Below the pieces are notes generated by a model. The model ran no database searches, had not been told where the DNA came from, and was given only the letters and a program-made list of their open reading frames with translations. A DNA stretch of 64,000 nt from an uncultured Elusimicrobia bacterium (lineage in GTDB: Bacteria; Elusimicrobiota; Elusimicrobia; UBA1565; UBA9628), in contig CAYHPY010000004.1 in the NCBI GenBank assembly GCA_964358485.1, positions 10,796-74,795 of the forward strand, in the 5' to 3' direction. This document shows, one piece after another, positions 6,710 through 62,074 of the stretch (the first letter of the stretch is position 1; the number at the start of each line of letters is the position of its first letter). A program made the position numbers and the translations under genes.

Positions 6710-7288
6710 TCAGGCTTCTTTGCGGCGGATCAACTCCAGGGCCGCCGCGGGGGTCGCCGCTTGAGAAAGCTGCTCCACCAGATCCGGCTGGAAGAAGAAG
6801 GAGACTTCCCGGAGCATCCGCAGGTGGGGCTGGATGAACTCCTGTTTATCCGGGGAGAAAAACAAGAACATGACCCGGATCACCAATTGGGGATCCGCAA
6901 TCCCCTGGGGGACCAAGGCCATCCCGGCCACGATCCGGGAAATCGATTCCAGGCGCGCGTGGGGAAGGCTCAAACCGGTATCCAAGGTGGTGCTGACCGA
7001 TTTCTCCCGATCGACCACCTTGGCCAGGAGCGCGTCCTTGTTCGAGAATCCGTGTTTGGCGCAAAGGGCCGTGACCAGGCCCTCCAGAAGGGCTCCCTTG
7101 TCCTGGCCGGGCTGGGCCACCAGGATCACGTCCTCGCTCAAAAGCTCGGAAACCGGAGACGATTTGGCCTTGCCCTTGGACGGCTTGGCCGATCCGGCGG
7201 CGGGCGAGGAGGCCTTCTCCTGGGGCATCGGCTCCGGGGGAGGGGGCGGGGGAGGCGTGGATTTCTTCTGGAACCAACCGAGCGACAT
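6710..7288 (-). CDS. PTS EIIA-type (EIIA-Ntr/fructose-type) regulatory domain protein with Pro-rich N-terminal extension
   Basis: MSLGWFQKKSTPPPPPPPEP... is followed by a PTS_EIIA_2-like domain (ALLEGLVTALCAKHGF...LPHARL...VIRVMFLFFSPD). The start is inferred at MSLGW. The longer track ORF upstream is GC read-through. Confidence 0.7.
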   Translation of the reverse strand: MSLGWFQKKSTPPPPPPPEPMPQEKASSPAAGSAKPSKGKAKSSPVSELLSEDVILVAQPGQDKGALLEGLVTALCAKHGFSNKDALLAKVVDREKSVSTTLDTGLSLPHARLESISRIVAGMALVPQGIADPQLVIRVMFLFFSPDKQEFIQPHLRMLREVSFFFQPDLVEQLSQAATPAAALELIRRKEA

Positions 7289-7318
7289 AGGCGTCCGGGC
7301 ATTATAGTAGAATGGCCC

Positions 7319-8101
7319 ATGGTTCGCAAGCGGTCGGGGGCGGGAACCCTTCGGGGCCTGACCTTGATCCTGACCCGCCCCCGCAATCAGGCGGGGGAGA
7401 TGGCCGCCGCCCTGCGCGCCGCGGGGGCAAAGGTGGTCCTGGCCCCCTTGATCCGGATCGAGCCCCCGGATTCCTGGGCGCCCCTGGACCGGGCCCTGAC
7501 GAACCTCGGCGGCTTCGACGCCGTCGTGTTCGCCAGCGCCAACGCCGGAGAAGCCTTCTTTTCCCGGGCACAATCCCTTCGATTGGGCGCCCTGCCGCGG
7601 CCCCTCCGTCTTTTCGCCGTGGGGCCCGGAACGGCCCTGAGCCTGGCCGCGCACGGCTGGCCCGGAGCCGTCCAGCCCGCCAAAAATCAAGCGGAGGGCC
7701 TGGCACGGCGTCTGGGAGCGGTCCGAGGCTGGAAAATCCTCATTCCGCGGGCCGCCGAGGGGAGGGAGGCCCTCCCCCGGCTGCTGAGAAAAGCCGGGGC
7801 CAAGGTCACTTTGGCCCCGTGCTACCGGACCCGTCCGGATAAAGCCGGAGGGCGGGTCCTGGCCCGCGCAACCGGCCGCGGCGGGGTCCTCGTCGCCTTC
7901 GCCTCCCCGTCGGCCGTCAAGGCCGCCCGGAAGGCCTTGGGAGCCTCGGGGTTTCGCTCTTTGTTTCGAGGGGCAGGGGCGGCGGCCCTGGGTCCCGTGA
8001 CCGCCGCCGCCCTTAAAAAGTTCGGCGTCGTCGCCCGCGCGGTTTCCCTGAAACCGACGGCGGCGGGACTAGTGGACGCCCTCGCGGAGAACCTCGCGTG
8101 A
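7319..8101 (+). CDS. hemD: uroporphyrinogen-III synthase
   Basis: MVRKRSGAGTLRGLTLILTRP...GAKVVLAPLIRIEPP in the first half and ILIPRAAEGREALPRLLRKAGAKVTLAPCYRT in the second half are the HemD duplicated-half motifs. The start is inferred 30 nt from the divergent PTS gene. Confidence 0.75.
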   Translation: MVRKRSGAGTLRGLTLILTRPRNQAGEMAAALRAAGAKVVLAPLIRIEPPDSWAPLDRALTNLGGFDAVVFASANAGEAFFSRAQSLRLGALPRPLRLFAVGPGTALSLAAHGWPGAVQPAKNQAEGLARRLGAVRGWKILIPRAAEGREALPRLLRKAGAKVTLAPCYRTRPDKAGGRVLARATGRGGVLVAFASPSAVKAARKALGASGFRSLFRGAGAAALGPVTAAALKKFGVVARAVSLKPTAAGLVDALAENLA

Positions 8102-8889
8102 TCCCGGCCCGAGCCGAAAAGGTCTTGGGAACCGCCCTCTCCCGCGCGGGCCGGGTGCTGCGGCGCAAGTTCGGGAAAGTCGGGGTCGGCTACAAAGGAA
8201 GGGCCAACCTCGTCACCGCCGCCGACCTCGAAAGCCAGGAGGCCGTCCTGGCGACGATCCGCCGGGCGTTCCCCGGCCACGATTACCTGGCCGAGGAAAG
8301 TGCCGCCAAAAAGACCGGCTCCGACTATCTTTGGGTCATCGATCCGTTGGACGGAACGACCAATTTCGCCCACGGCTATCCGGTCTGCTGCGTGTCGATC
8401 GGCCTGCTGCGGCGGGGCGTCCCGGTGCTGGCCGGGATTTACGATCCGTTCCGCCGCGAGCGGTTCACCGCCCGCCGGGGACGGGGCGCCCATTTGAACG
8501 GGCGCCGCATCCGGGTTTCCGCGGCTGGCTCCGTGTCCGAATCACTGTTGGTGACCGGCTTTCCTTATGACCGGGCGGAGCGCTCCAGATTCTACGTCGA
8601 GTTCTACCGCCGCTTCATGGTCTCTTGCCACGACGTCCGACGGAGCGGCTCGGCGGCCCTGGACCTGGCGTGGATCGCGGCGGGCCGGGCCGAAGGATTC
8701 TGGGAGTTCAATTTAAGCCCCTGGGACGTGGCGGCCGGCGCTCTTCTGGTCGCTGAAGCCGGGGGCAAGGTGACGGATTTCGCGGGCCGCCCGTGGCGGT
8801 CCCTTGAGGATTTCGGGCGCCGGACTTTGGCCACCAACGGGCGCGTCCACGCCGAGATGCTGAAAACCTTGAACAAGGGCTTGCCGTGA
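8098..8889 (+). CDS. inositol monophosphatase family protein (SuhB-like)
   Basis: The IMPase motifs YLWVIDPLDGTTNF and WDVAAGALLVAEAGG are present. It overlaps hemD by 4 nt. Confidence 0.88.
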   Translation: MIPARAEKVLGTALSRAGRVLRRKFGKVGVGYKGRANLVTAADLESQEAVLATIRRAFPGHDYLAEESAAKKTGSDYLWVIDPLDGTTNFAHGYPVCCVSIGLLRRGVPVLAGIYDPFRRERFTARRGRGAHLNGRRIRVSAAGSVSESLLVTGFPYDRAERSRFYVEFYRRFMVSCHDVRRSGSAALDLAWIAAGRAEGFWEFNLSPWDVAAGALLVAEAGGKVTDFAGRPWRSLEDFGRRTLATNGRVHAEMLKTLNKGLP

Positions 8890-9707
8890 CGACCGGAGCG
8901 GTCCTTTTTTTCCTTGGCCTCGGCGGAGGCCTGCTCGGAGCGGTGTTCGGGATCGGAGGGGGCGTGTTCCTGATCCCCATCCTCGTGCTCTTCTGCGGAT
9001 TTTCCATGCTCAACGCGGTCGCCACGGGCCTGGTCACCGTAATCGCGACCTCCAGCGCGGTGGCCGCGGTCAATCTGGAGCGGGGGCTGGCCAATATCCG
9101 GCTCGGGATGGTCCTGGAATTGGCCACGGTCCTGGGGGCGGTGCTCAGCGCGTTCGCGGCGGGAAAACTCCCGCAGAACCTGCTGGTGGGGCTATTCGGG
9201 GCCCTATTGGGCGCCGTCTCCATCATGATGTGGAAAGGGCAGGGAGGGGAAACGGCGAAAGACCGGGCCCCGGCCAAGCCGGGGCTGTTGGACGGCGCAT
9301 ATTTCGATCCCGCCGCGGGGCGCAACGTGGTCTACCAGGTTCGCCGGCTGGGGACCGGCCTGGCGGTGTCTTTCGGGGCCGGAGCGGTGTCGGGCCTGCT
9401 CGGCGTGGGGGGAGGGGTTTTCAAAGTTCCCGCCATGCATTTGTTCTGCGGTCTGCCGATGAAGGCGGCCGCGGCGACCAGTAATTTCATGATCGGGGTC
9501 ACGGCCGCGGCCAGCGCTTTTCTTTATTTCAATCGCGGCGCCGTCCTCCCGGAACCGACCGCGCTCATCGTGCTCGGCGTGCTGGGCGGTTCAATGGCGG
9601 GGACCTGGCTCAATCTGCGGCTCAAGGACGCGGGGATCCGACGGGGCTTCTCGGTGCTGCTCCTCCTGCTCTCGATCCGGATGCTCGTCAAGGCCTTCCA
9701 TGGCTGA
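8886..9707 (+). CDS. TauE/SafE-family (DUF81) sulfite/anion exporter membrane protein
   Basis: An 8-TM protein with Gly-rich repeats GIGGGVFLIP and GVGGGVFKVP, typical of TauE/SafE. Confidence 0.8.
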   Translation: MTTGAVLFFLGLGGGLLGAVFGIGGGVFLIPILVLFCGFSMLNAVATGLVTVIATSSAVAAVNLERGLANIRLGMVLELATVLGAVLSAFAAGKLPQNLLVGLFGALLGAVSIMMWKGQGGETAKDRAPAKPGLLDGAYFDPAAGRNVVYQVRRLGTGLAVSFGAGAVSGLLGVGGGVFKVPAMHLFCGLPMKAAAATSNFMIGVTAAASAFLYFNRGAVLPEPTALIVLGVLGGSMAGTWLNLRLKDAGIRRGFSVLLLLLSIRMLVKAFHG

Positions 9708-9981
9708 CCGCGAAAGGTTCGTGGACCGCCTCGTGTCCCGGCTCTTGGGGACCGGGGTCGCCGTCAGCGGTCTGCTGTTGGCGGCGGGCCTGTTCACGGC
9801 CGCGCCGATGGGCGAACGCCTTCTGCACTGGGGAATCGTTTTGCTCATCGCGACCCCGGTGTCCCGGGTCGTCCTGTTGGCCGGCGCGTTCGCGGCCCAA
9901 AAAGAGTGGCGGATGTTCTGGGCCAGCGCGGGCGTTCTTGGGCTACTGGCGGCGGGGGCGTTGACGGGAGCCGGCCACTAA
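9700..9981 (+). CDS. small membrane protein (DUF1634-like TauE partner)
   Basis: A 93-aa protein with two TM helices. It overlaps the TauE gene by 8 nt, the common TauE-DUF1634 arrangement. Confidence 0.55.
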   Translation: MADRERFVDRLVSRLLGTGVAVSGLLLAAGLFTAAPMGERLLHWGIVLLIATPVSRVVLLAGAFAAQKEWRMFWASAGVLGLLAAGALTGAGH

Positions 9982-10961
9982 AACCGGTAGCCCAACCAGA
10001 ACCGGTTGGTCGAGCCGATGTCGCCGAAGGGGACCCAGGCGTAGTCGATGAAAAACCGCTCGAAATCCAGGCCGGCCCCGAGGGCCAGGCCGGAGAGGCC
10101 CTCGACTTTCCGGGAGTAGCGGAGGTTGTAGCCGCCCCGAAAGAGCGCCTTCCAGGGTTTGGGCCGCTGAAGGGGAACGTGGCCCTCCAGGCCCATGGTC
10201 AGGTAAGGGTCGTTGTCCACCGGGAGGTTGTAATCGAACGCGGTCTTCAAATACGGGGTGGTGTGCCACAGAACCCCGGTGCGGATGTGAAAAGGAAGTG
10301 GATCTGATTCCTGCCCCAGCTTGAGAGGGCTTCCCAGGTTGAATACGCTGCAACCCACGTCCACGGGGCCGTCCCCGGCCTCGGTCAGCCGGAGAAACTG
10401 CGCCCCGAAATCAAAGGCGACCGCGGAACCGGACACGTTGTCGATCGAGGAGCGGATCACCTTGGCGCCGCCGCCAAGCAAGAGGCGGCCCAGCGCGCCC
10501 GCGTAGGCCGCCGACAGGGCCATGTCCCCGGCGGAAAAAGATCCCGCGGAATCGCCGAGGGCGTTGTAGGCGGTCTGTTCGGACTGCGAAAAATACACGA
10601 ACCCCAGCCCCAACGCTCCTTTTCCCAACGGCGCCGCGTAGGCCAGGGCCCCCGAGTGCGCCCCTTCCAGGAGATTGTTGTATCCGATCCCCGCCTCGGA
10701 AAGCGCCGGAGCGGGCCGCCGGGCGAGCCCCGCGGGGTTGAAAAAAACCGCCTCCGCGCCCTCGGCGCCTCCGGCGGCGACCTCCGCCATTCCCATGCTT
10801 CGGGCCCCCGGAGGCGACTTCAGAAAAGCCGCGCCCACCGAGCCGGCCGCTTTCCGCGAAAACGCGCCGTCGGGAAACATCGCGGCCTGGGCGGCGAAAG
10901 GAAACGCCAGGCAGAAACCGGCCGACGAGATCAGGCCGAAGGGGGAGAGTCCGGATTTCAA
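9978..10961 (-). CDS. PorV/PorQ-like (FadL-like) outer-membrane beta-barrel, paralog 1
   Basis: A signal peptide is followed by the N-terminal motif SMGMAEVAAGGAEGAEAVFFNPAGLA. The protein has alternating beta-strand character and ends in the aromatic terminus GYRF. It is a paralog of ORFs 42534..43541 and 61067..62074. Confidence 0.7.
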   Translation of the reverse strand: MKSGLSPFGLISSAGFCLAFPFAAQAAMFPDGAFSRKAAGSVGAAFLKSPPGARSMGMAEVAAGGAEGAEAVFFNPAGLARRPAPALSEAGIGYNNLLEGAHSGALAYAAPLGKGALGLGFVYFSQSEQTAYNALGDSAGSFSAGDMALSAAYAGALGRLLLGGGAKVIRSSIDNVSGSAVAFDFGAQFLRLTEAGDGPVDVGCSVFNLGSPLKLGQESDPLPFHIRTGVLWHTTPYLKTAFDYNLPVDNDPYLTMGLEGHVPLQRPKPWKALFRGGYNLRYSRKVEGLSGLALGAGLDFERFFIDYAWVPFGDIGSTNRFWLGYRF

Positions 10962-12055
10962 ATCGGCCAGACCGGGCCCTTGCGGGCGGGCTTGGCTTCC
11001 GACGCGTCGGCCGGCTTCTCTGAGAGAGACTCGAGGACCATCGGCGTCGGATTCGGAAGCTTGACGGTGGCGTCGGGATTCTTGACCGGAGCGGGAGGAG
11101 GAGGAGGCGGCGGGGGAGGCGGCTCGATCGAAAGGGCGGGGGGCGCTTCTTCTGTCGGGGGCTTTGCGACCAGCCCGGCCAGGGCGGGAGGAACGTCCAA
11201 TTGGATGGACATGGAGGATTCGGGTTCGGCGGCCTTGGGAGAGTTGGGCTCGGGGACCGCTTCGGGCAGGGAAGACCCCGCCATGAGAGCGTCCAACGGC
11301 GCCCCATGGGGCCGGGCGTCCATGTCTCCCAGAATATCCGCGGCGGGAGCGGCGGGTTCCGGAGCCTTCATCGGAAGATCGAAGGAGGGGACATCGGGCG
11401 CGGAAGCGGGCGGCTCCGCGGGAGCGGGGGCGGGGGCGGGAGCGGGGGCGGAGGCAGGCGTGGCCGCGACGGGCGCGGGGGCCGCCGGCGCGGGCGCCAG
11501 GGCGGCAGTTTTGACTTGCGAGGAAAGTTCCTCGAGCTTCTTGAGGATCAGGCTATCCTGATTTAGGAGCCCCGCCTGCTGACTCTCCTGCTTGGTGAGC
11601 AATGTCTTGATCACCGCCACTTCCTTGTCCAGGCGGTCAAGCTGGGATTTGATGTTCTGCATGTAGACCACGGCCGGACTAATGCCGCCGGTTGTGTTTT
11701 CGGCTTTTTTCTGGCCGGCGGCGGCGGCCGCCGTCGCATCGGGCGCGGGCGCGGGCGCAGGCGCGGGTGCCGGTGCCGGTGCGGGCGACGGAGCCTTGAT
11801 CGGCGCAGGAGCGGGAGCAGGCGCCGCGGCCGGAGCCGTGGGCGGGAGCACCAAGGTCTTTTCAATCGCGGGCGATTTCACCGCGACGGGCATGAGCGGA
11901 GGAAGCGGGAAGGACTCGGGCTCGTGCGAATCCTGCCGCTCCGGAGCGCCGGTCGCTTTCTTATATTGGCTGAGGAGATATACGAAAAGCGCGGAACTGA
12001 CGCAGAAACCGAGGGCGGAAACCCAGAACCAAGCGTCCTTGATGAGGTTGGCCAT
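10958..12055 (-). CDS. membrane-anchored Pro/Ala-rich coiled-coil protein (hypothetical)
   Basis: It has an N-terminal TM helix (WFWVSALGFCVSSALFVYLL) and long (PA)n tracts. A central heptad coiled coil reads LDRLDKEVAVIKTLLTKQESQQ. It overlaps the downstream barrel gene by 4 nt. Confidence 0.55.
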   Translation of the reverse strand: MANLIKDAWFWVSALGFCVSSALFVYLLSQYKKATGAPERQDSHEPESFPLPPLMPVAVKSPAIEKTLVLPPTAPAAAPAPAPAPIKAPSPAPAPAPAPAPAPAPDATAAAAAGQKKAENTTGGISPAVVYMQNIKSQLDRLDKEVAVIKTLLTKQESQQAGLLNQDSLILKKLEELSSQVKTAALAPAPAAPAPVAATPASAPAPAPAPAPAEPPASAPDVPSFDLPMKAPEPAAPAADILGDMDARPHGAPLDALMAGSSLPEAVPEPNSPKAAEPESSMSIQLDVPPALAGLVAKPPTEEAPPALSIEPPPPPPPPPPAPVKNPDATVKLPNPTPMVLESLSEKPADASEAKPARKGPVWPI

Positions 12056-12117
12056 GGAAAGTCCATGGTATCGGAATTGCCAAAGGATGTCAAGAAATTT
12101 GCTATTCTGGCCGCGCC

Positions 12118-13590
12118 ATGAAATTGATCCTCGCCCTCTTGCTCACCGGGCCCGCCTCCGGAGCTCCCAAGCCTTTCCCGGGAGAAAATTGCGTCCGCTG
12201 CCACGCCGCGTTGAGGGACAAGGTCCCCGGCCCGGCGGCTTCCAAGGCTCCGACCGACGCTGGGACCTACGACGCCGTCATCATCGGGGGGGGGCTCAGC
12301 GGCCTTTCGGCGGGCCACTTCCTTAAGAAGCGCAAGCTCCTCATTCTGGAGGCGGAATCCAAGCCGGGGGGACGCGCGCGCCGGGAATCCTTCGGGGCGA
12401 ACCGGAAGTACCCGACCGGGGCGGTCTACACCTCCGAGCCTTACGGGGCGATCAAAACGCTATACGACGATCTCGGGCTCAAATCCAAGGTCATCACCAT
12501 GACGGCCCACAGCCTTTACAGCCAGGGCAAGGTTTTCGAGCATTGGCTCCGGGCCGACGGCAACGGCCTGCCGGAAAACTCCTTCACCCCCGAGGACCGC
12601 GCGGCCTACAAGCGCCTGAGCGCCAAGATGAAGGAGCTCGTCGAAACCCACGCGCTCACCATCCCGATCGAGGAAGCCCCGAAAAGCGCCCTGGACGAAT
12701 ACGACTCGATCTCGTTCTGGGATTACCTGGAAAAAAATTACGGCAAGCGCCTGGCCGAGGTCGGGGACATCTACGCCCGCGACGTTTTCGGCGACGGCGC
12801 CCGGGAAGTCTCCGCCTACGCCGGCCTTACCTACCTGGCGGTGGAGCAGGACGTCAGCAAAACCTGGGAGGGCGGCATGGGCGAGATCCCGGAAGCCCTG
12901 CATCGGGAGCTCGGAAAATCGGTGAGAACGGGGGCCTTAGTCTGGAAGGTCGCCCAGGACGCGGAGGGAGTCGACGTCTTCTACTCAAAGGACGGGAAGG
13001 ACTTCAAGGCCCGGGGGAAAACCGCCGTCATGGCCGTCTCCTCCTTGGTCGCCCGCCGGATCGTCGCGGGCCTGCCCGAGGACAAACTCAAGGCCATGGC
13101 CCAGACCCGTTATTCCTCCTACGCCCTGGTCCCCTTGAAGCTGAAAAAAGTGGTCTGGGCCGATTCCTTCGTGTTGTGGATGCGGGACGCCTTCGTCACC
13201 GATTTCACCTTGCCCCGGGCCGACAACGCGTCCCTGAAGGCCCACCCCGAGAAGGGCCAGGTCCTGGTGGGCTACGCCCCCATGGGGGGGGCGGCGGGCC
13301 GGAAATACCTGCTCGCGGCCCCGGATGAAGAGCTGAAGTCCCGGGCGATCGCCGACCTGGAGCGGGCTTTTCCCGGAGCGTCCTCGCAGGTCGAGGAAGC
13401 GCGGGTGATCCGGTGGGGGCACGCGATGCCCTTGGCGTTTCCAGGTTATCTGGCCCAAGTCCGCCCGATCATCGCCCGCCCCGAGGGGCGTATTTTCTTC
13501 GCGGGGACCGACACTCAGCTTCCCGCCATGGAAGGCGCGATCTACTCGGGATTTTACGCCGCCGAAAAGGCGTCGGCTTTGCTCAAATGA
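12118..13590 (+). CDS. secreted FAD-dependent amine oxidase-family flavoprotein with N-terminal CxxCH (putative heme c) motif
   Basis: A signal peptide is followed by ENCVRCHAAL, then a GxGxxG FAD fold (YDAVIIGGGLSGLSAGHFL) and amine-oxidase-like C-terminal motifs (IFFAGTDT...EGAIYSG). Confidence 0.75.
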   Translation: MKLILALLLTGPASGAPKPFPGENCVRCHAALRDKVPGPAASKAPTDAGTYDAVIIGGGLSGLSAGHFLKKRKLLILEAESKPGGRARRESFGANRKYPTGAVYTSEPYGAIKTLYDDLGLKSKVITMTAHSLYSQGKVFEHWLRADGNGLPENSFTPEDRAAYKRLSAKMKELVETHALTIPIEEAPKSALDEYDSISFWDYLEKNYGKRLAEVGDIYARDVFGDGAREVSAYAGLTYLAVEQDVSKTWEGGMGEIPEALHRELGKSVRTGALVWKVAQDAEGVDVFYSKDGKDFKARGKTAVMAVSSLVARRIVAGLPEDKLKAMAQTRYSSYALVPLKLKKVVWADSFVLWMRDAFVTDFTLPRADNASLKAHPEKGQVLVGYAPMGGAAGRKYLLAAPDEELKSRAIADLERAFPGASSQVEEARVIRWGHAMPLAFPGYLAQVRPIIARPEGRIFFAGTDTQLPAMEGAIYSGFYAAEKASALLK

Positions 13591-15821
13591 AGCTGTCGAC
13601 CGCCGCCCTGCTTCTGAGCTTGGCGTCTTACGCGGGGGCTTGGGAGGAGAAACCCAAAGGGCCGCCGCCGCCGCAGAAGAAGCCCTGGCAGGAGCAACCA
13701 AAAAGATGGCAGGATTGGGGCCAGCAGAACCCCCAGGAGCCGGCCCCTGCCCCCAAACCCCCGAAAACCGTCATCGTCCCCTTCGGAGGAGGAGACAACG
13801 CCATGCCTCCCCGCCAACCCCGGACCGGGCCCTCGAAGCCCCCGGTCATGAAGGAGTTCAAGGAGGAGGTTTCGCGCCTGGTGTCGGCCTATGTCGAAGC
13901 GAAGGCCGCGGGCAGCGGAGGGGTGTTCCTGGTCACCGACACCGACGGGAGCCAACTCAAGCTCACCCGCCCAAGCTTGAAAGGCGGCCAGATCCGGAAC
14001 CTGCCCAACGGCCAGGTCGCGGCCTGCGTCTTTTTCGCCGACGCTTCCGGGGGGGCGCGCGGGGCGGACCTGGATTTCATCCTCTCCAAGGAATCCGGGG
14101 ATTGGACCGTCGCCAAGCTTTTTGTCCACGCGGTCGGCGGGAGCGCCCGGTACGACTATGACCCCGACAACCGGATCGTGGCCGCGGCTTCGGCGACCAG
14201 GCCCCAAAATCCGGCCGCCCCCCGCGCGAGCCGCTCCCCGAGGCCCACCGCGCCCCCGCGGTTGGCCGTCAAGGTCGCTTTCGTCGAGCCTTCCGGAAAC
14301 GACATCCTGGACGGAGGGGAGACCGCCGAAATCCGGGTCACGGTCTCCAACTCGGGAACCGGGGAGGCGTACGGGGTCAGCGTCGCGGCGGCGATGAACC
14401 CGGCGGCCAAGGGCCTGTCCTTGCCGGCGCCGGCCGAACTGGGGAATATCAGGCCCGGAAAATCCGCGTCGGCCCGCCTGACCGTCTCGGCCGCCGAATC
14501 CGCCCCGGACCGCACCGCCCGAGTGTCCGTGGAGACGCGGGAGGCCAACGGCTTCGACGCCGAGGCAAGCGTCTTGGAATTCGAGATCCGCGCCTACCGC
14601 CCCCCCCGGCTGGAAGTGGCCGGCCTGGAGCTCGAGGGGGCCGCCGTGGTCAAAGCCGGGGAGCCGACCAAATTCAAGGCGACCCTCCGCAACGCGGGGG
14701 CCTCGGCCGCGCGGGGAGTTTCGGCGCGGCTGGTCATCGACAGCCCGGACATTTTTCCCTCCGGGGAGGAGAGCGTTTCCCTGGGCGTCCTTCCTCCCGG
14801 GGAAACCAAGACCGCCTCCTTCGAGTTCTTCGTCAACAAGCGCTTCAAGGGGGGAAAGGCCCTGCCGCTTTGGTTGGAGCTCACCCACGCGGGGCCCGAC
14901 GGACCCCGGCCGGAAAAGGCTCCGCTGTCCCTGGCCCTGGGGAAAACCCCGGACGCCCCGAAGGTGCTCAGCATCAAAGGGCGGCAGGAGCTTCCCGCCC
15001 CGGCGGGAGAACCGGCCTCCGCCCTGGAGGAGCCGCCCGCCTCCCGCACGCCAAAAAACCCGGATGCCTACGGCGTGGTCATCGGGATCGAACGCTACCG
15101 GGACGTTCCGCCGGTCTCCTATGCCGCGTCGGACGCCCGGACCGTTTACGCCTATCTCACCCAGTCCATGGGATTTGACCCGAAGAACGTGATCCTTCTG
15201 GAGGACGACCGCGCGGCCCTGACCGACATCGACACCTACCTTGGGCCATGGCTGTCGGACCGCGTCGGCCCCAAAAGCAAGGTCTTCGTGTTCTACGCCG
15301 GGCACGGGGCGCCCAACCCGAAAACCGGAGAAGCCTACCTGATCCCATTCGACGGCAATCCAAATTACGTGGAGACCAAGGCTTATCCGATCCGCAAGCT
15401 CTATGAGGGCCTGTCGAAACTCCCCTCCCGGGACGTGACCGTGGCGTTGGACGCCTGCTTCTCCGGTGCGGGCGGCCGGTCGGTTCTGGCCAAGGGAGCC
15501 CGGCCCCTGGTTCAGATGGGCGCCCCGGTCCCGGCCGGGGATAACCTGGTGATCCTGACCGCCTCGGGCCCCGATCAGATCAGCACCTTCCACGAAGAGG
15601 GAAGGCACGGCCTGCTGACCTATTTCCTCCTCAAGGGCTTGCGGGGGGAGGGGGACTCGGACAAGGACGGGCGGGTGACCACGGGAGAGTTGTTCTCCTA
15701 TCTGAAGCCCGCCGTCGAGCGGGAGGCGCGCCTTCAGCACGTGGAACAGGTCCCCACCCTCACCCCCGCTCCGGAAAACCTCGGGGAACGGGCCGACGGG
15801 GTTTGGCTCCGACTCAAATAA
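13587..15821 (+). CDS. secreted caspase-family (peptidase C14) protein with two CARDB-like domains and C-terminal EF-hand-like loop
   Basis: The start MKLSTAALLLSLASYAGA is inferred and overlaps the upstream stop (ATGA). Two CARDB-type Ig-like domains read ETAEIRVTVSNSGTGEAYGV and EPTKFKATLRNAGASAARGV. The caspase His/Cys dyad is VFVFYAGHG ... ALDACFSGAGG, and a DSDKDGRVTTGEL loop follows. Confidence 0.75.
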   Translation: MKLSTAALLLSLASYAGAWEEKPKGPPPPQKKPWQEQPKRWQDWGQQNPQEPAPAPKPPKTVIVPFGGGDNAMPPRQPRTGPSKPPVMKEFKEEVSRLVSAYVEAKAAGSGGVFLVTDTDGSQLKLTRPSLKGGQIRNLPNGQVAACVFFADASGGARGADLDFILSKESGDWTVAKLFVHAVGGSARYDYDPDNRIVAAASATRPQNPAAPRASRSPRPTAPPRLAVKVAFVEPSGNDILDGGETAEIRVTVSNSGTGEAYGVSVAAAMNPAAKGLSLPAPAELGNIRPGKSASARLTVSAAESAPDRTARVSVETREANGFDAEASVLEFEIRAYRPPRLEVAGLELEGAAVVKAGEPTKFKATLRNAGASAARGVSARLVIDSPDIFPSGEESVSLGVLPPGETKTASFEFFVNKRFKGGKALPLWLELTHAGPDGPRPEKAPLSLALGKTPDAPKVLSIKGRQELPAPAGEPASALEEPPASRTPKNPDAYGVVIGIERYRDVPPVSYAASDARTVYAYLTQSMGFDPKNVILLEDDRAALTDIDTYLGPWLSDRVGPKSKVFVFYAGHGAPNPKTGEAYLIPFDGNPNYVETKAYPIRKLYEGLSKLPSRDVTVALDACFSGAGGRSVLAKGARPLVQMGAPVPAGDNLVILTASGPDQISTFHEEGRHGLLTYFLLKGLRGEGDSDKDGRVTTGELFSYLKPAVEREARLQHVEQVPTLTPAPENLGERADGVWLRLK

Positions 15822-39831: not shown

Positions 39832-42537
39832 ATGCTTTCCGCTCCATTCCGGGCCGCGATTCTCCTGTTTTTCCTGTCGACCCCGCGGGTTTGGGGGGCC
39901 CCGAGCGCGCCCGTGCTTTCCACCGGAACGGCCGTGGGGACGACCTCGATCCTCTGGAACTGGACCGCCCCCTCGGACCTGGCGGCCGTCTGCCCGACGG
40001 GAACCCAGACCTACACCCTCTTCGACATGGCCACGGGCCTTCCGGTCACCTCCGTCCTGCATCCTTCCGTTTCCATCCAGGAGAACTTCGGAGGTCTCCC
40101 CAACACCCGCTACGTCCGCGGCGTGAGCGTGGCGTGCAGCTGCCTGGGCTGCGGCACCAGCCCCCTGTCCAACAGCTCGACCATCTACTCTTTGGCCGCC
40201 GCGCCCGCCAATCCGGGCGCCTCCTCGGTCTCGACGGGCACCATCGTCCTCAACTGGAGCGCCAACTCCAATCCGTCCTACACCCGCTACGAAATCACCC
40301 TCTCGACGATCAGCTACGCGCTCGGAGTCACCTCCCCGGTGGTTTACACCGACAACCTCACGCTGAGCACCAAGGCCTTCACGACGCTGAGCCCCGGGAC
40401 CACCTACTTTTTCCGGATCCGCTCCTTCAACGGCAGCGCGGCCGACGCCTCCGGGGCGCAATTTTCCGCGCTGACGAGCACCGACATTCCGACTCTGCCC
40501 GACCGGGCGGTCGCGGCGGGCACGGCCCTCTCGACCGGCTCCCTGCGCTGGACCTGGAACCTGGTCCAAGGAGCCACGGGCTACCGCGTCTATTCCAATT
40601 CGGGCGAGTTCATGGCCGACGGCCCCATCGTGGCCGTCAGCTCAGGCGGGCTGGCCGCCAGCGCCGGCTACGGGATTCAGGTCGAAGCCTACAACCGTTC
40701 CGGGGCCGGGCCCCGGGGCACGGCGTTCGCCTTCACCAAACCCCGGACCCCGATCAATTTCTCGATCGTCTCCGCCGACACCAACACCATCGGCATCTCC
40801 TGGGACGCCGACGGCAACGCCGCGGGGACCTTTTACGAAATCTACACCGCCCTCGATCCCGCGTTTCTCTCCCCGATCGCCACCAACACCGTGACCCAGA
40901 CCAGCGCCTCCCTGGGAGGGCTGTTCCCGGGAAGCACCTACTACGTGCGCCTGCGGGCGCTCAACGGCGGGCAGCTCGCCTCGGCCTTCACCGCCATCCG
41001 GTCCACGGTCACCCCCGTGACGGCCGGTCTCAGCCAATCGACGGCCCCGGCCTCGCCCTACGCCACCGTCGGCACCACCATCGGAATCTGGCATCTGGAC
41101 GCCAGCTCCGGAACGGCGGCCGTCGACGCCGGATCCTTGAGCAACGCCGGGACCATGACCTGCCAGGGGCAGGGCTGCACCTCGACGCCGACCTTCACGA
41201 CGGGCCTGACGGGAATGGGCAACGCCGCCTCATTCAGCGGAGTGCCCAACGCCATGGTCCGGATCGCCAGCCTCCCGGCCTATGACTTCACCGGGGCCAT
41301 CACGGTCAGCGCCTGGGTCCGCCCCGCCACCGCGTCCCAACCCCTGGGCGCGGCGATCGTCGCAAAAGGCACCGGGACCTACGAATCGTTCGCCCTGGAC
41401 ATCTCCTCGAGCTCCTCGGGCTCGCGCCATTTCCGCTTTTTGGTGACCGGACCCGGGGGAGCGGGCCCCGTCACCTATGTCGCCGTCGCGACCTCCGCGA
41501 TCCGGGCCGGTCAATGGGACCATGTGATCGGCGTTTACACCCCGGCGGGGACCCCGAGCGTCAAAATTTTCGTCAACGGGTCCCTTTCGAACACGAACGC
41601 GACGGGGGTGGCCGCGTCGAGGGTCGTCTCCCGGGCCCCGATCACGATCGGCAGCCGGCAGTCCGCGGCATCCTCCTACGACCTCTCGTTGACGGGCGCC
41701 GCCGACGAGATCCGGATCCTGGACCGGGCCTTGACCGATTCCGAGGCGGCCATCGAATACCGGTCCGGCTTTCCGGGGGCGGTCGCCCCACCCTCGGCCA
41801 ACGGCCGGCTGGTCCTGTCCATCCCGCCCAACGCCTTCAACGGGACGGCGGTGGTCTTCTTTTCCGCCGACCCCCTGCGCGAACCGGTCCGGTCCGCCGA
41901 CAATTTCGTCTCCCAGGGCCTGGCCATCCTGCCCACGACCCAGACCTTGATTCCCAACTCCCTGATCGAAATCGTCCCCACGATCAACGGAACTCCCTAC
42001 GCGGGGGACCTAGGATCGACGGCCACCCTCACGGTCCCCTACACCGACGCGGACAACGACGGCACGGTCGACGGCACCTCCCCGCCGATCTCCGCCTCAT
42101 CGCTGAAGCTTTACCGCCTGGAGACCACGGTCCTGCGCTGGGTGGAACTGGCGACGACGGTGGACACCGCCAACAAATTGGTCACCGGCCAAACCACCCA
42201 TTTCTCCGTCTTCGGCCTTTTCGGAGCCAGCTCTTTCGCCACCGCCCTCTCCCAGGCCCGGGTCTATCCCTTGCCCTGGAAACCGGGCTCGGGCACGCGT
42301 TTTGACGCGGCCGGACTGATTTTCGACGGCCTGGGGACCAGCGGGTCCATCCGGATCTACAACCTGGCGGGCGCCGAGGTGGCCCATTTCTTCTTCGGGG
42401 TCGCGGACCAGGGGCGCAAAACCTGGGACGGCCGCAATCGGGATGGAATTCCCGCCGCCAGCGGGCTCTATTTCGCGGTGGTCCGCGGGAGCTCCGGAAA
42501 CGACACCGCGCTTTTGAAATTCATTCTGGAACGATGA
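39832..42537 (+). CDS. large secreted surface protein: fibronectin-III repeats + LamG/ConA-like lectin domain + C-terminal T9SS-type (Por_Secre_tail-like) sorting domain
   Basis: A signal peptide is followed by repeated FN3-like units (W.W motifs) and a LamG-like block (WHLDASSG...GAADEIRILDRAL). The C-terminal ~80 aa read RVYPLPWKP...IRIYNLAGAEV...WDGRNRDGIPAASGLYFAVV. Confidence 0.7.
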   Translation: MLSAPFRAAILLFFLSTPRVWGAPSAPVLSTGTAVGTTSILWNWTAPSDLAAVCPTGTQTYTLFDMATGLPVTSVLHPSVSIQENFGGLPNTRYVRGVSVACSCLGCGTSPLSNSSTIYSLAAAPANPGASSVSTGTIVLNWSANSNPSYTRYEITLSTISYALGVTSPVVYTDNLTLSTKAFTTLSPGTTYFFRIRSFNGSAADASGAQFSALTSTDIPTLPDRAVAAGTALSTGSLRWTWNLVQGATGYRVYSNSGEFMADGPIVAVSSGGLAASAGYGIQVEAYNRSGAGPRGTAFAFTKPRTPINFSIVSADTNTIGISWDADGNAAGTFYEIYTALDPAFLSPIATNTVTQTSASLGGLFPGSTYYVRLRALNGGQLASAFTAIRSTVTPVTAGLSQSTAPASPYATVGTTIGIWHLDASSGTAAVDAGSLSNAGTMTCQGQGCTSTPTFTTGLTGMGNAASFSGVPNAMVRIASLPAYDFTGAITVSAWVRPATASQPLGAAIVAKGTGTYESFALDISSSSSGSRHFRFLVTGPGGAGPVTYVAVATSAIRAGQWDHVIGVYTPAGTPSVKIFVNGSLSNTNATGVAASRVVSRAPITIGSRQSAASSYDLSLTGAADEIRILDRALTDSEAAIEYRSGFPGAVAPPSANGRLVLSIPPNAFNGTAVVFFSADPLREPVRSADNFVSQGLAILPTTQTLIPNSLIEIVPTINGTPYAGDLGSTATLTVPYTDADNDGTVDGTSPPISASSLKLYRLETTVLRWVELATTVDTANKLVTGQTTHFSVFGLFGASSFATALSQARVYPLPWKPGSGTRFDAAGLIFDGLGTSGSIRIYNLAGAEVAHFFFGVADQGRKTWDGRNRDGIPAASGLYFAVVRGSSGNDTALLKFILER

Positions 42538-43541
42538 GACCCGAACGATCGCCGCGCCCGCGCCGGAAAACGGCCTTGCTGGCCGCGCTGCTGCTTTGGG
42601 GGCCGGGCCCGGCGGGAGCCGCCTATAAAAAAACGGACTCCGGGACCACGGTCGGGCAGTTTTTGAAGCTCGGGGCCGACGCCCGGGCCGCCGGCATGGG
42701 CCAGGCCGCCCGGGCCTTGGCCGAGGACGCCACCGCGGTCTACTGGAATCCCGCCGGGCTGGCGGGGCTCCAACGGAGGCACGCCACCGTGACCCACGCC
42801 GTCTACCTCCAGGATGTGTTTTACGACTTCATGGCCTACGCCCAGCCCGTCGAGTCGGTCCTCGGACGGGGGGTGCGCGAGCGGGAACTGCGGACCAGCC
42901 CGCTGGGCTCGATCGGGGTCGGCGTGATGTATCTCAACTCGGGACGGTTCGGAGAGCTCGACAACACCGGCGCACAGACCGGAGCGACCTTCATTCCCCA
43001 GGACCTGGCCGTGATGGCCGCGTGGGGGGGGAGCGTGACCCGGAATCTGGACCTCGGCCTCGGGGTCAAATACATCGCCTCCCGCATCCACGCGGCGGCC
43101 GCGACCGGAGCGCTCGACGCGGGAGGACGCTGGCGCTGGAAGCTGCTGGGGCGCCCGGCGGTCTTCTCCTTCAGCGTCCACCATGTCGGCGGCAATCTCC
43201 GCTACAACAATTCCGAGGAGACGCTCCCGACCACCGTCAGCGGGGGCGGAGCGTTGAAACTGACGCGGGATTGGTCGTTGGCGGCCGAATTGTTGGCCCC
43301 GCGCGACGGACGGATCTACGGGGTGGTCGGCACCGAATTCCGCTGGCGCTTCGACGGGGATTCGGCGGCGACCCTGCGGGCCGGCTACAACGGCCTTGCC
43401 AGCTCCCGGGAACTGGGGGGATTTACCGCCCTGACCGCCGGGGGAGGCTACCAGGCCAAGCGCTATGGGGTGGACTACGCCTGGACTCCGTTCGGGCGGC
43501 TGGGAGACATTCACCGCTTCACCCTCTCCTTCAGTTTTTAA
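42534..43541 (+). CDS. PorV/PorQ-like outer-membrane beta-barrel, paralog 2
   Basis: AAGMGQAARALAEDATAVYWNPAGLA ... C-terminal YAWTPFGRLGDIHRFTLSFSF. It overlaps the upstream surface-protein gene by 4 nt. Confidence 0.7.
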   Translation: MRPERSPRPRRKTALLAALLLWGPGPAGAAYKKTDSGTTVGQFLKLGADARAAGMGQAARALAEDATAVYWNPAGLAGLQRRHATVTHAVYLQDVFYDFMAYAQPVESVLGRGVRERELRTSPLGSIGVGVMYLNSGRFGELDNTGAQTGATFIPQDLAVMAAWGGSVTRNLDLGLGVKYIASRIHAAAATGALDAGGRWRWKLLGRPAVFSFSVHHVGGNLRYNNSEETLPTTVSGGGALKLTRDWSLAAELLAPRDGRIYGVVGTEFRWRFDGDSAATLRAGYNGLASSRELGGFTALTAGGGYQAKRYGVDYAWTPFGRLGDIHRFTLSFSF

Positions 43542-55199: not shown

Positions 55200-58100
55200 A
55201 TGCGAGGATTTCAATTTGGGCGGACCGGGCTCTTTTTGGGGCTGTTGTCCGCCCTACTCTGCGCCCAGGCCTCTAGGGCCTCCGCCGCCGTCTTCGCCGA
55301 CCGCTACTCCCACTCCTCGACCCTCCTGGCCGATGGAAACATCCTGATCGCGGGCGGTTTCGTGGGCGGCGCCGCCTCCGGCAATACGCAGCTGCGGGTC
55401 GACATGCGCGACACCTACCTCAATCTCGCCCCCATGGCCGTCGCCCGGGCCTCTCACACCGCCACCTTGCTGCCGGACGGGCGGGTCCTGGTGGCCGGCG
55501 GTTTCGACGGAGCCGTCGCCGTCACCGGCGCCGAATTTTACAACCCGGTCACCAACGCCTGGACCGCGGCGGGAGCCATGAACAACGCCCGCTACAACCA
55601 CACCGCCACCCTGCTTCGAAACGGAAACGTCCTGCTTTGCGGCGGCCAAACCCAGACCGGGGCGCTCCAAGCGAAGTGCGAAATCTTCAACATCACCACG
55701 GGCTTTCAGGCCGCCGGCAGCGTGCCGGACATGCTCACCCCCCGCACTCACCACACCGCGACCCTCGTCGAGGGCGGGCGCGTCTTCTTCACCGGGGGCT
55801 TCAGCGCCGCCGTGACCCCCAATTACATGCCCCTGTCCGAGGTCTTCGATTCCACCGCGGTGGCCACCGGGGCCAACTGCGTGGCCGGGGTGGGCTGCTT
55901 CATCCCCGCCCGCCCTTTGAACGAAGGCCGGGCCTACAATACCGCCACCTCGATGGGAAACGGGAAGGTCATGATCGCGGGCGGCTATTCCGGGCGCGAG
56001 CGCGATGGGAGCCGGGGCTACCTGGAAAGCACCGAGATCTACGACCCGATCGCCGATTCGATGATCACCGCCCCCGCCTTGAAGACCCGGATGATGGGCC
56101 ACACCGCCACCATGTGGAATGACGGGCAAATGCTCGTCTACGGAGGCCTCGGAAACATCACGACCACCTACTTGACCGGGGGCTACACCATCAACAACGG
56201 AAGCCTTCTGACCGGGCGCTTCGTTCTCCCCAGCGGCGCGGCCGGTTCCCTTTCCACGATGACCGTCCCGGCCGCGGCCACTCCTTCCGTCATCTCCGTG
56301 ACCATGGATTTCCCGCTTTCGGTCCCGGTCACCGGGAGCATCCATCGGGGACGGATTCTGTTCTCCACCCCCTCGATCACCTTCCCGGACGGGGTGGCCT
56401 ATCTGAATTGGGCGACCTCGGGAACCCTCACCAACGGCCTCCAGGCCGATCTCGCGGGAGTTCGGGTGGGGTGCACCCCCACCGGAACCTGCGGGAAAAT
56501 CACGGAAACCTTCCTTCTAAAGCAGATTACCGGGGTCTACGCGATGCGGGACCGCGCCACCTCGGTCTACCAATTCTTCGCCACCCAAGGCTCCTTCACC
56601 TTCATCGGCGGGAACATCACCCCCACCTCCCCGGCCCGGACCGTGACCGACGGCTACATCCACGGACCGGTCCAAATCCCCGTCCCCGGGGATTACATCG
56701 GAGCCAGCATTTCCAGCGGAACCTTCACCATCACCAGCGGCAGTTTCGCCAAGCTTTCGACCGGAACCGTCAGCATGATCCAGGGGGGCTACCTGGTCAT
56801 TCCCGCGGGGACGACGATCGTCGCCGATCCGACCGTTCCGGGGGGGGGCATGATCAGCCTCGCCTCGGGGGATTTCAACCGCATCATCGGCACGGTGGTG
56901 GGAAACGGCGCCGTCGAGTCGGCGTCTTCGGTCCAATGCGTTCCCGACGGGGCGACGGCCCCGGGCTGTTCGAACGTCTCCTATGTCAGCACCGTGGCGT
57001 TTTCCGCCTCGGGGAATTTGAAATTCGTGGTCGACCGGATCGACCTTTCCGGGAAGTTCCTGAACGTGGACAAATCGACGGTCATCATCGAGTCCATGGT
57101 CTTCAGCGATTTGCAAAAATTCTCCCCGAAAGACAATCAGTGGGCCGTCACCGCCGAGGGCCGCGGGGCGATTTCCCAATTCAACCACACCGCCGTTTTG
57201 TCGCCCACCTCCTCAATCAAATTCCTGGGCGGCCGCACCTGCGACAACACCGGCACCTGCGCCGTCCTGGTCGCCACCTCCGCCACGACCCTCCTGGGAA
57301 AGCTCGATACCTGGACGGCCGGCGGCAATATGGCCAACCCCCGCGGCCACCACACCGCCACGGTCCTTCCGACCGGGAAGGTCCTTGTGGCGGGGGGCAC
57401 CGACGGCCCCAACACCTGGGCCAGCGCCGAACTCTACAACCCCACGAGCCGGACTTTCGCCGCGACCGGTTCGATGAAACACGCCCGGGACCTGCACACC
57501 TCCAGCCTCCTTCCCAGCGGGCGGGTCCTGGTGGCGGGGGGTTTCTCTCCCGGAACGGCCAGCACGGGCGCCACCAACACCTCCGAAATATACTATCCCG
57601 ACTCCGCCGTCTGGATTCCCACCTCGGTCATGATCTCCTCCCGGGACAGCCACACCGCCACCGTCCTGCCCGACGGCAACGTCCTGGTGGCCGGGGGCTA
57701 CAACCGCGGGGTCTACCAGAATACCGCGGAAATTTTTTACTCCACGGCGGGGGTCTGGCGGCAGATCGCCAACATGCCGAACCGGCGGGCCAATCACACC
57801 GCCACCCTCCTGCCCAGCGGGGAGGTCCTCCTTTACGGGGGCATCAACGAGACGGGGGTGCTGGGCGCGCCGGTGTCCTACAATCCGATCACCGGCCTCT
57901 GGTCGGCCCGCACCAACACCACCTTCACGATCAACCGCACCTATCACCACACCGCCACCCTGCTTCCCAGCGGAGAGGTGCTCTTCCTGTTCGGCAACGA
58001 CGGGACGGGAACCATGGGAGTGGGTCAGCCCTATTTCCGCGAGATCTACGATCCCCTCTCCGACCTCTGGAGAACGGCCGCCGCTCAAGACATCGAGGCC

Positions 58101-61070: not shown

Positions 61071-62074
61071 GGATCTCCCGCCTCGGCCCGCTCGCGGCTC
61101 TGCTCCTGGCCCTGGGAAGCTCGGCCGCCTTCGCCCGCCGACCCCCGGAATTCTCCCGGGATTCGGTGGGCACCACCGGGTCGGAGTTTTTGACCATGGA
61201 CGTCGGGGCCCGCGGCATCGCCATGGGGGGGGCTTACTCGGCCCTGACCGACGACTCCAACTCCCTTTATTGGAACCCCGCGGGTCTGTCGCGGATTCCG
61301 AGGATGTCGGCGTCCTTCACCTATTCCCATTACCTGGCCGATATCTCCTACCAGTCCGGCTCGGTCGCCCGGCGCTTCACCGATTACGGGGTGCTTGGGG
61401 TGGGCTGGCGCTACATGGACATCGGGGAACTCGATCGCGTGGACATTTCCGGCGTCAAAAAAGGCATCTTCCATCCCCGGCACTATGTGGGTGAAGTCGG
61501 CTGGGGCCAGGCCGTCCTCGATCAATCCGACAGCGAAATGGACCTCACGGTCGGGGGGACCATCCGCTGGATCCACTCCGACCTGCTTCTGCACGCCGAC
61601 GGCTTCGGGGGGGACCTGGGCATGCAGTCCCGGTTCTACAAGGGCTCGACGATCTACGATTTCGGCGCCGTCCTCCAAAACCTGGGGCGCGGGCAGAATT
61701 TCAAAAGCGAACGGGACACTCTCCCCTTCCGCATGAAGGTCGGGGCCGCGGTTTACCCGGTCAAGAACCTGGCCCTGTCGGTCGAGGGATTCTTCCCGAT
61801 CTACTCCTATCCCCACGCCGGGGTCGGAGTCGAATACGGGGTCGAACTGCAAAAGGGAATTCGAGTGGCCCTCCGGTCCGGCTTCAACAGCGCGACCATC
61901 GAGAGCCTCGGCGCGCTTTCCACCATGAACATGGGCCTGGGGCTCAAGGTCTCCGATCTCAGCTTCGATTACGGCTTCTCCCCCATGGGAGTCCTTGGGA
62001 CCAACGTCGTCCACCGACTGACCTTCAGCTACAATCTTCCGTCAAAATCCTCCAAACGATATAGGGAGAGATGA
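61067..62074 (+). CDS. PorV/PorQ-like outer-membrane beta-barrel, paralog 3
   Basis: MRISRLGPLAALLLALGSSAAFA is the signal peptide. It carries MDVGARGIAMGGAYSALTDDSNSLYWNPAGLS and an ATGA overlap with the giant protein gene. The start may be at 61067 or 61070 (±3 nt). Confidence 0.7.
   Translation: MRISRLGPLAALLLALGSSAAFARRPPEFSRDSVGTTGSEFLTMDVGARGIAMGGAYSALTDDSNSLYWNPAGLSRIPRMSASFTYSHYLADISYQSGSVARRFTDYGVLGVGWRYMDIGELDRVDISGVKKGIFHPRHYVGEVGWGQAVLDQSDSEMDLTVGGTIRWIHSDLLLHADGFGGDLGMQSRFYKGSTIYDFGAVLQNLGRGQNFKSERDTLPFRMKVGAAVYPVKNLALSVEGFFPIYSYPHAGVGVEYGVELQKGIRVALRSGFNSATIESLGALSTMNMGLGLKVSDLSFDYGFSPMGVLGTNVVHRLTFSYNLPSKSSKRYRER

Follow-up and report, generated by a model that had tools for sequence, protein, structure and literature searches.

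The current study identifies a two-gene unit in which an outer membrane barrel of the PorV/FadL fold is paired with a membrane-anchored, largely disordered protein of an undescribed family, and this pairing is conserved over a large part of the phylum Elusimicrobiota. The unit was found in a 64,000-nucleotide stretch of contig CAYHPY010000004.1 (assembly GCA_964358485.1, an uncultured Elusimicrobia bacterium), hereafter referred to as the window, where the interval 9978-12055 consists of two co-directional minus-strand genes; all features of the pair described below lie on this strand. The upstream gene (10958..12055, 365 aa) encodes the Pro/Ala-rich protein, which we term the anchor, and its open reading frame (ORF) starts at the first ATG past an in-frame stop. 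The downstream gene (9978..10970) encodes the PorV/PorQ-family barrel. A mechanical ORF rule places the barrel start at TTG 10961 (327 aa), which yields a 4-nt TTGA overlap with the anchor TGA, and an in-frame alternative start is available at CTG 10970 (330 aa). The window is 61-69% G+C and rich in spurious ORFs. The anchor and barrel frames both exhibit the codon-position G+C pattern typical of real genes, and we conclude that both are real, with their conserved homologues providing the decisive evidence. That an alternate-frame ORF might be the actual gene, a possibility raised along with the original prediction for this interval, is ruled out by the conservation of the anchor frame, as approximately 150 homologous clusters share its N-terminus, helix and C-terminus. 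Overall, the observations made in that prediction were largely right, while its interpretation of the locus in terms of repeat slippage and an envelope spacer is mostly unsupported. The conservation of the pair, the invariant anchor C-terminus and the in-frame CTG start had escaped it.

The two genes behave as a single, self-contained predicted operon when compared across genomes. A scan of GTDB species representatives yielded 52 loci with the anchor gene, nearly all of them labelled as Elusimicrobia/Elusimicrobiota metagenome-assembled genomes (MAGs). In every locus that reaches the 3' end of the gene (45/45), the anchor ends in G-P-V-W-P-[V/I]-stop and a barrel orthologue with 43-55% identity is located directly next to it; the remaining 7 of the 52 are cut by contig ends. 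Four further genomic contexts agree with the pairing. Among protein clusters formed at 90% identity, approximately 25 anchor homologues were found and every named source is an Elusimicrobia MAG, while a search of 1.84 billion representatives returned 149 anchor clusters at 50% identity, 132 of them below 1e-10. At this level, the edge of the family is sharp and no larger superfamily is apparent.

The downstream product is a Sec-exported outer membrane barrel with the PorV/FadL fold. It matches the NCBIfam PorV/PorQ family model NF033709 with 122.7 bits, above the cut-off of 90, whereas it falls far short of both equivalog models (34.3 against 250 for PorV, NF033710; 77.9 against 220 for PorQ, NF033711). 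The AlphaFold2 (AF2) model, built from a 60-sequence alignment, has a pLDDT of 90.9 and a pTM of 0.86. The best Foldseek matches in the PDB are PorV 8gl6_F (E 1.3e-12, TM-score 0.69) and 6h3i_F, both PorV chains in SprA translocon complexes, followed by TbuX, TodX and FadL. Sequence identity to PorV is 16-17%. The protein carries a Sec signal peptide ending in A-Q-A (~10884-10961) and an N-terminal hatch with a conserved N75-P76-A77 motif within a 14-strand-type barrel. Thus, the barrel shares with PorV/PorQ and FadL/TodX/TbuX the family match, the best superposition (on PorV), the Sec signal peptide and the N-P-A hatch motif, but it differs from PorV/PorQ in its distance from the equivalogs and in having a gene partner that is no secreted protein with a type IX secretion system (T9SS) C-terminal domain (CTD). 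Among more distant homologues of the barrel (34-38% identity), three (P0043, P0045 and P0048) carry a C-terminal Pro/Ala/Ser linker and an extra domain of ~100-150 residues past the last strand. PF03783 and PF13036 are among the precomputed Pfam matches of P0045 and P0048, and P0045 is named a "TolB-like protein" in one source.

The anchor is a bitopic protein with a short acidic N-tail, one transmembrane helix, a disordered Pro/Ala/acidic linker, a TTGGISPAVVY motif leading into a coiled-coil-type helix of ~60 residues, another disordered Pro/Ala linker whose length varies greatly and, at the C-terminus, an invariant PVWP[V/I]. Only two structured elements, helices 3-35 and 127-185, were predicted by AF2 (26 homologues), and the remainder is low-confidence coil or disorder in a protein composed of 20% Ala and 20% Pro (Pro+Ala 41%). 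The transmembrane helix (~residues 8-30; 11966..12034), which is supported by both the AF2 helix (pLDDT ~92) and charge counts, is preceded by a 6-residue N-tail and followed by Q-Y-K-K, and it has a conserved small/polar face composed of S13, G16 and S20. D7, W9, F10, S20 and Y31 are invariant in this region. The disordered linker 1 contains the first Pro-Ala (PA) tract (residues 74-104; 11744..11836). The conserved core (11501..11695, pLDDT 90-95) begins with T-T-G-G-I-S-P-A-V-V-Y-M-Q-N-I-K (residues 121-136), in which P127, V130, Y131, N134 and K136 are invariant, and runs into a 59-residue amphipathic helix with hydrophobic positions at 3-4 spacing. Relative to most homologues, the central helix of the window and of one related locus (L008) contains a 7-residue insertion, QQAGLLN (residues 159-165, ~11560-11580); as this equals one heptad, it is consistent with a coiled coil keeping its register. 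The second PA tract (residues 187-212; 11420..11497) starts linker 2, and a poly-proline stretch, P10-A-P (residues 312-323; 11087..11122), is conserved in L007, L008 and L009. Hence, the central features that had been proposed for this interval are confirmed: two coupled ORFs (by their overlap and the NF033709 match), an N-terminal transmembrane helix, long Pro-Ala repeats, a central coiled coil (as a coiled-coil-type helix with pLDDT >90) and the absence of a CTD tail, the latter being undetected with Pfam, NCBIfam or AF2, which leaves the C-terminal 180 residues disordered.

Across the family, hypervariable linkers separate four conserved elements: the N-terminus M-x-x-L-x-x-D-x-W-F; the transmembrane helix with S13, G16 and S20, followed by Q-Y-R/K; T-T-G-G-I-S-P-A-V-V-Y-L-Q-N-I-K leading into the long helix; and the extreme C-terminus K-P-x-R-[RK]-G-P-V-W-P-[VI], which reads K-P-A-R-K-G-P-V-W-P-I in the window. 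Searches of Pfam, NCBIfam and PDB sequences with the anchor yielded no family model, only sub-threshold, composition-driven matches, which include Dynactin, IcmG/DotF (E 0.003), E2 lipoyl linkers and designed coiled coils. A type IV pilin-like (class III) N-terminus was also rejected, as the position expected for Gly(-1) varies (G, S, T, N or H) and the acidic residue occupies +4 rather than +5.

A putative barrel start codon nested within the anchor gene

The key feature of the pair is its junction (10958..10993), which encodes both the anchor C-terminal peptide with its stop codon and the barrel initiation region. Extraction of the last 12 anchor codons from 42 loci gave the consensus ...[CGG/AAG] GGN CCN GTC TGG CCN RTN stop, and the same bases in the barrel frame read NTG GCC CGT CTA, or (M)-A-R-L. 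In nearly all of these loci, a signal peptide follows, as in (M)ARLAPLLAAVLAAAPVQA|RFLPPGAFS. The barrel NTG is CTG in 40/42 loci and TTG in the other two, such that the start is nested in the invariant Val-Trp codons (GTC TGG read as cTG G) and the genes overlap by 13 nt. The Arg/Lys-Gly codons of the motif form a Shine-Dalgarno (SD)-like purine run 6-8 nt upstream of the nested start. In the window, the CTG lies at 10970-10968, and AAGG is located 11 nt before it and 20 nt before TTG 10961. The same AAGG is found 10-11 nt before the coupled starts at 8886, 9700 and 10970, which are three successive internal starts.

For most loci, there is no in-frame ATG, GTG or TTG between the preceding stop and the nested NTG, and ~20 loci lack such codons within the next 75 nt as well, which makes CTG the sole start that preserves the barrel signal peptide in those species. 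Consequently, barrel synthesis appears to be tied to termination on the anchor ORF. One public gene call (L004 6918..7898) does start at the nested CTG, while other public calls for the barrel start at an internal Met and yield products of 271-285 aa without a signal peptide (L001 6897-7754, L002 7119-7934, L005 7140-7964), presumably because the true start is CTG. If so, this would be a systematic mis-annotation of the barrel in Elusimicrobiota MAGs.

Codon usage suggests that the weakness of this start is itself maintained. In 40/42 loci, Val(-4) is encoded by GTC, and neither GTG nor GTA ever occurs there, although GTC accounts for 56% and GTG for 29% of the Val codons within these barrel genes. 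All four Val codons are found at the terminal Val of the motif. Since GTG or GTA at Val(-4) would create a stronger start, the weak CUG appears to be under selection, with stronger starts selected against. The Pro(-2) codon is likewise shifted to CCC, which places Arg at barrel residue 3. A purely nucleotide-level constraint, such as a ribosome-binding site, can be dismissed as the sole cause of the C-terminal motif, as its Gly, Pro and terminal Val/Ile codons differ among loci at the third position, whereas CC and GT, the spacer dinucleotides, are fixed although initiation offers no known reason for this. Coupled stop/start codons have no specific requirement for surrounding sequence according to a recent review (PMC12548453). 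Together with the variable third positions, this suggests that the C-terminal peptide also appears to be under selection at the protein level. Among 36 junctions, RNAalifold found no conserved RNA structure (4 invariant pairs, -3 kcal/mol, no covariation). A programmed -1/+2 frameshift fusing the two ORFs was considered and rejected, as there is no conserved slippery heptamer (a G-run is present only where Gly is GGG, in 18 of the 42 loci) and an ordinary signal peptide stands at the start of the barrel frame.

Comparison with known systems and possible mechanisms

The window encodes two paralogues of the barrel (42534-43541 and 61067-62074), each preceded by a large cargo gene on the plus strand. 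One cassette (39832-43541) encodes a 901-aa fn3/LamG protein and the other (55200-62074) a 1956-aa Kelch/fn3 protein. Both cargos have a signal peptide and are joined to their barrels by an ATGA overlap, and their C-termini are alike and CTD-like (...LKFILER / ...LKLVVLR); a FlgD_ig match at the cargo C-terminus was scored for the 901-aa protein only. Another cargo and barrel cassette is known from Flavobacterium, in which SprB-type adhesins are encoded beside PorP/SprF-like barrels. The anchor-barrel pair shares with the window cassettes its gene order, with the partner upstream, the barrel downstream and the stop and start overlapping, but the similarity ends there. The cargos are made with cleavable signal peptides, contain folded domains (Kelch, fn3, LamG) and a C-terminal domain that is FlgD_ig-like in the 901-aa protein, and meet their barrel genes in an ATGA overlap, whereas the anchor has an uncleaved N-terminal transmembrane helix, no folded domain, only a 6-11-residue C-terminal motif and a 13-nt overlap with a CUG start. 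It also differs from T9SS cargo in general, as it lacks both a signal peptide and a CTD of about 80 residues. Moreover, the anchor is a single-copy orthologue across the phylum, unlike the variable cassette cargos. The proposal that the pair is a mere variant of such a cassette is therefore not supported, as the two genes form a distinct orthologous pair that has an invariant C-terminal motif and a nested start codon of its own. No T9SS core components were identified in the annotated parts of the window, which was partly scanned with family libraries, and a literature search combining Elusimicrobia with PorV/T9SS returned nothing relevant to the anchor-barrel pair.

The anchor N-tail, 2-10 residues long and with an invariant Asp, is free of K/R in 114 of the 130 family members that have an N-terminal helix, while all 130 have at least one K/R directly past the helix and the C-flank count exceeds that of the N-tail in 123. 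Deep-branching members have KRYR, KKRR, KRAR or KRFR at this position. By the positive-inside rule, such a charge pattern is characteristic of N-out/C-in proteins such as ZipA or the Pf3 coat protein, and we consider this predicted orientation quite likely for the anchor as well. It argues against a periplasmic envelope spacer, as had been proposed originally, since a spacer would require an N-in/C-out protein with its bulk in the periplasm, whereas the charges around the helix predict that the bulk is cytoplasmic. Like E. coli ZipA, the anchor has a short N-tail, one transmembrane helix, basic residues after it and a long Pro-rich disordered linker that is predicted to be cytoplasmic, but instead of a globular C-terminal FtsZ-binding domain it has a coiled coil in its central part and a short peptide at the C-terminus, and there is neither sequence similarity nor a link to division genes. 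The resemblance is one of overall layout only.

We favor an account, to which we give slightly less than an even chance of being right as a whole, that combines coupled translation of the barrel with an N-out anchor having cytoplasmic partner-binding parts and PA spacers. The barrel would be translated mainly by ribosomes that have just completed the anchor ORF, through termination followed by reinitiation ~10 nt back at the nested CUG, and the weakness of this codon would keep independent initiation low, such that barrel output tracks anchor output. The anchor itself would be an N-out/C-in and probably dimeric membrane tether, whose disordered bulk faces the cytoplasm as in ZipA and does not span the periplasm. 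Upon its early insertion into the membrane, the anchor would hold the translating mRNA there, and the barrel precursor would be made beside the Sec machinery. The coiled coil and C-terminal peptide are probably binding sites for some partner in the cytoplasm, while the PA tracts would serve as flexible spacers with lengths that drift between species.

Several points weigh against this account. The topology assignment is not secure, as the K/R counts on the two sides of the transmembrane helix differ by just one Arg in the main clade and the C-flank there has a net negative charge; E. coli ExbD, for example, is N-in although its N-tail has no K/R. Both CUG initiation and reinitiation are read from sequence alone, and the nominal p-values for the codon bias (~1e-7) overstate the independence of 42 loci that are phylogenetically related. 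A role purely in mRNA targeting or coupling would also leave the protein-level conservation of the central helix and of G-P-V unexplained. Lastly, two genes that overlap tightly frequently code for subunits of the same complex (PMC10666635), and an outer membrane barrel can touch a partner only in the periplasm, which favors a trans-envelope arrangement of the anchor. Such an arrangement, which is near the original envelope spacer, would have the anchor N-in/C-out, with polyproline-II-like PA linkers and the coiled coil spanning the periplasm and PVWP[V/I] docking on the cognate barrel at its hatch or periplasmic face, thereby linking the inner and outer membranes in the manner of TonB/TolA or as a minimal CTD substitute. 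We consider it rather unlikely. It would account for the obligate pairing, with overlapping genes in 45/45 loci, and it has a parallel in the other two window barrels, which are coupled to cargos whose C-terminal domain is the expected barrel-binding element. By our estimate, even the shortest family members (~204 aa) could still reach ~30 nm. Like TonB/TolA, the anchor has a single N-terminal transmembrane helix, long disordered or Pro-rich segments and a genetic link to an outer membrane barrel. Periplasm-spanning proteins typically have Pro-rich linkers, and TonB/TolA are defined by an SHLS motif in the transmembrane helix, an N-in orientation and a Pro-rich domain II (PMC12204202). The anchor does have a Pro-rich, disordered segment comparable to domain II, but it lacks S-H-L-S (there is no His in its transmembrane helix), a K/R-containing N-tail and, according to AF2, any globular C-terminal domain, with only the 11-residue motif conserved, and its predicted orientation is the opposite, given that K/R are absent from the N-tail in 114/130 members and always present past the helix (up to 4 in the deep clades). 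Motor genes (ExbBD/TolQR) do not adjoin the pair in the window or in six other loci, where the neighbors are genes for amine oxidase, TauE, DUF1634, ACPS, carboxyltransferase, thiolase, HemD and inositol phosphatase. Furthermore, linker lengths vary 4-7-fold, which is not what a ruler-like constraint would produce, and the nested initiation region already explains part of the invariance of the C-terminal motif. A 6-residue C-terminal peptide may nonetheless act as a minimal CTD that docks an inner membrane protein onto a PorV-like barrel.

The position of the conserved peptide suggests a further set of explanations in which the act of translating the anchor is itself regulatory. The anchor ORF might be a new type of long, membrane-inserted gatekeeper, with the barrel translated only after termination on PVWP[V/I] and reinitiation at the CUG. 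The peptide would then tune reinitiation via the exit tunnel or the state of the tethered dimer, and the barrel would be gated by the status of insertion into the inner membrane. We regard this as doubtful. A further proposal is still more doubtful, namely that R-[RK]-G-P-V-W-P-[VI]-stop acts as a nascent-peptide regulator that slows or stalls the terminating ribosome over the barrel initiation region, with reinitiation tuned by the insertion or folding of the anchor as for SecM-secA, MifM-yidC2 or TnaC. The anchor does resemble SecM, MifM, VemP and TnaC in combining an N-terminal export or insertion signal (N-out, like that of MifM) with a conserved C-terminal Pro/Trp/Arg peptide at the stop codon, placed over the SD and start of the downstream gene, and the barrel start appears to be kept weak by selection. 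The SecM arrest motif also contains P-V-W-I and R-A-G-P, which serves as a lead only and not as a test. Unlike SecM, MifM and TnaC, the anchor ORF is far longer, has conserved internal protein features and, according to RNAalifold, has no conserved hairpin or stem-loop hiding the SD or start. With 200-400 codons and floppy linkers, the pulling force from insertion could not reach a ribosome at termination, and the conservation of the transmembrane helix, central helix and TTGG motif is that of a functional protein.

Repeat tracts and genomic neighborhood

The original prediction had also described the Pro-Ala repeats as near-perfect (GCN)n runs. Their positions were correct, as Tandem Repeats Finder (TRF) detects arrays at 11740-11787 and 11395-11497, the former contained in PA tract 1 and the latter enclosing PA tract 2. 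The runs are, on the other hand, not near-perfect: the repeat unit is a 6-nt hexamer (GCN-CCN) rather than a triplet, with 85-87% matches over 6-8 copies, and owing to the mixture of synonymous codons no perfect tandem run exceeds 19 nt (3.2 hexamers). The next longest are 17 and 17 nt, in addition to (CCT)4.7 and (GCC)4.3. It was further suggested that these arrays are slippage-prone microsatellites that vary spacer length among strains or within a population, much like contingency loci. The TRF arrays and the location of in-frame indels between orthologues of different species within the PA tracts are both compatible with this idea. The perfect tracts, at 3.2 x 6 nt and 4.7 x 3 nt, are nevertheless well short of the at least 7 units typical of contingency loci, and all repeat units are multiples of three, which would preclude on/off switching.

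Close relatives for a repeat comparison were obtained from the barrel search, which permitted only two close comparisons; a scan of JGI metagenome contigs for close relatives found none. The first relative (L006, 2053-4238), from a different sample, is 98% identical to the window in nucleotide sequence across the full 2.2 kb and has identical unit numbers in both PA tracts. Its 34 alignment gaps are all 1-3-nt deletions, mostly in short homopolymer runs scattered over both genes. As its contig (NODE_3664) has a coverage of 2.7x and the deletions break both ORFs, these are almost certainly assembly or sequencing errors rather than biology. The second comparison involves L008 and L009, which are one species from two samples. 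Their barrel proteins are identical and so are their anchors over the 58 C-terminal residues retained in L009, including the poly-Pro tract. Thus, neither comparison revealed repeat-number polymorphism among near-identical relatives. Between species, the L008 anchor is 77% identical to that of the window, and the two differ by in-frame indels of -5, -15, +7 and +9 aa, all in low-complexity linkers; PA tracts 1 and 2 are shorter in L008 by 5 and 15 aa, respectively. In the family as a whole, the lengths of the two linkers are 48-142 aa and 27-199 aa. We infer that linker length differs between species only, as expected from the usual drift of low-complexity sequence, with no indication of a hypermutable switch, and we consider slippage-driven variation highly improbable.

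Upstream of the anchor, a candidate sigma-70-like promoter (TTGACA-17-TACCAT; 12065..12093, minus strand) was identified by consensus match only. It matches the consensus at 10/12 positions, ends 9 nt ahead of the anchor ATG and is the sole such match in 9800-12400, where 0.2 would be expected from shuffles. An SD-like motif was sought upstream of the anchor ATG and none was found. The proximity of the candidate promoter to the ATG together with the missing SD suggests that the anchor transcript may have little or no leader. An SD-like motif is likewise missing from many stand-alone genes of the window. At the other end of the unit, the barrel stop overlaps that of the convergent DUF1634 gene (9700-9981, plus strand) by 4 nt (9978-9981), which leaves no room for a terminator between them.

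Gene tables from seven contexts show the two-gene unit to be isolated between divergent and convergent neighbors, among which HemD, inositol monophosphatase, thiolase, TauE, ACPS and carboxyltransferase are frequent. The window carries the same HemD-inositol phosphatase-TauE-DUF1634 neighbors, and synteny is partly kept across the phylum (L001, L002, L004, L005, L007, L008; window 6761-9981). One flank of the pair consists of HemD and inositol monophosphatase, often with thiolase and TauE/DUF1634, while the other consists of ACPS and acetyl-CoA carboxyltransferase. Among these neighbors, the lipid-metabolism genes might point to a barrel function resembling that of FadL. The plus-strand gene at 13413-15821, two genes away from the pair, encodes an 802-aa protein that combines CARDB/NPCBM-associated domains with a caspase-like Peptidase_C14 domain, and L008 carries this gene too.

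Implications for the Elusimicrobiota cell envelope

Barrels of the PorV/FadL type are known either to shuttle T9SS cargo or to form channels for hydrophobic molecules. Across the little-studied Elusimicrobiota, a PorV-like barrel is locked to an undescribed, membrane-anchored disordered protein, and the junction between the two genes is unusual as well, as their 13-nt overlap puts a CUG start within the invariant Val-Trp codons at the end of the anchor gene. If the model of coupled translation is correct, the pair would represent a clean natural case in which stoichiometry or localization is controlled by termination-reinitiation at a non-canonical start, and it would follow that standard gene callers truncate the barrel in many Elusimicrobiota genomes. 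If instead the anchor spans the periplasm, it would be a new minimal link between the inner and outer membranes, and if it serves as a gatekeeper, it would gate a housekeeping outer membrane barrel in the manner of SecM or MifM, though with a different build. Under either the coupling or the tether model, the anchor and barrel constitute a tractable pair for work on the Elusimicrobiota envelope.

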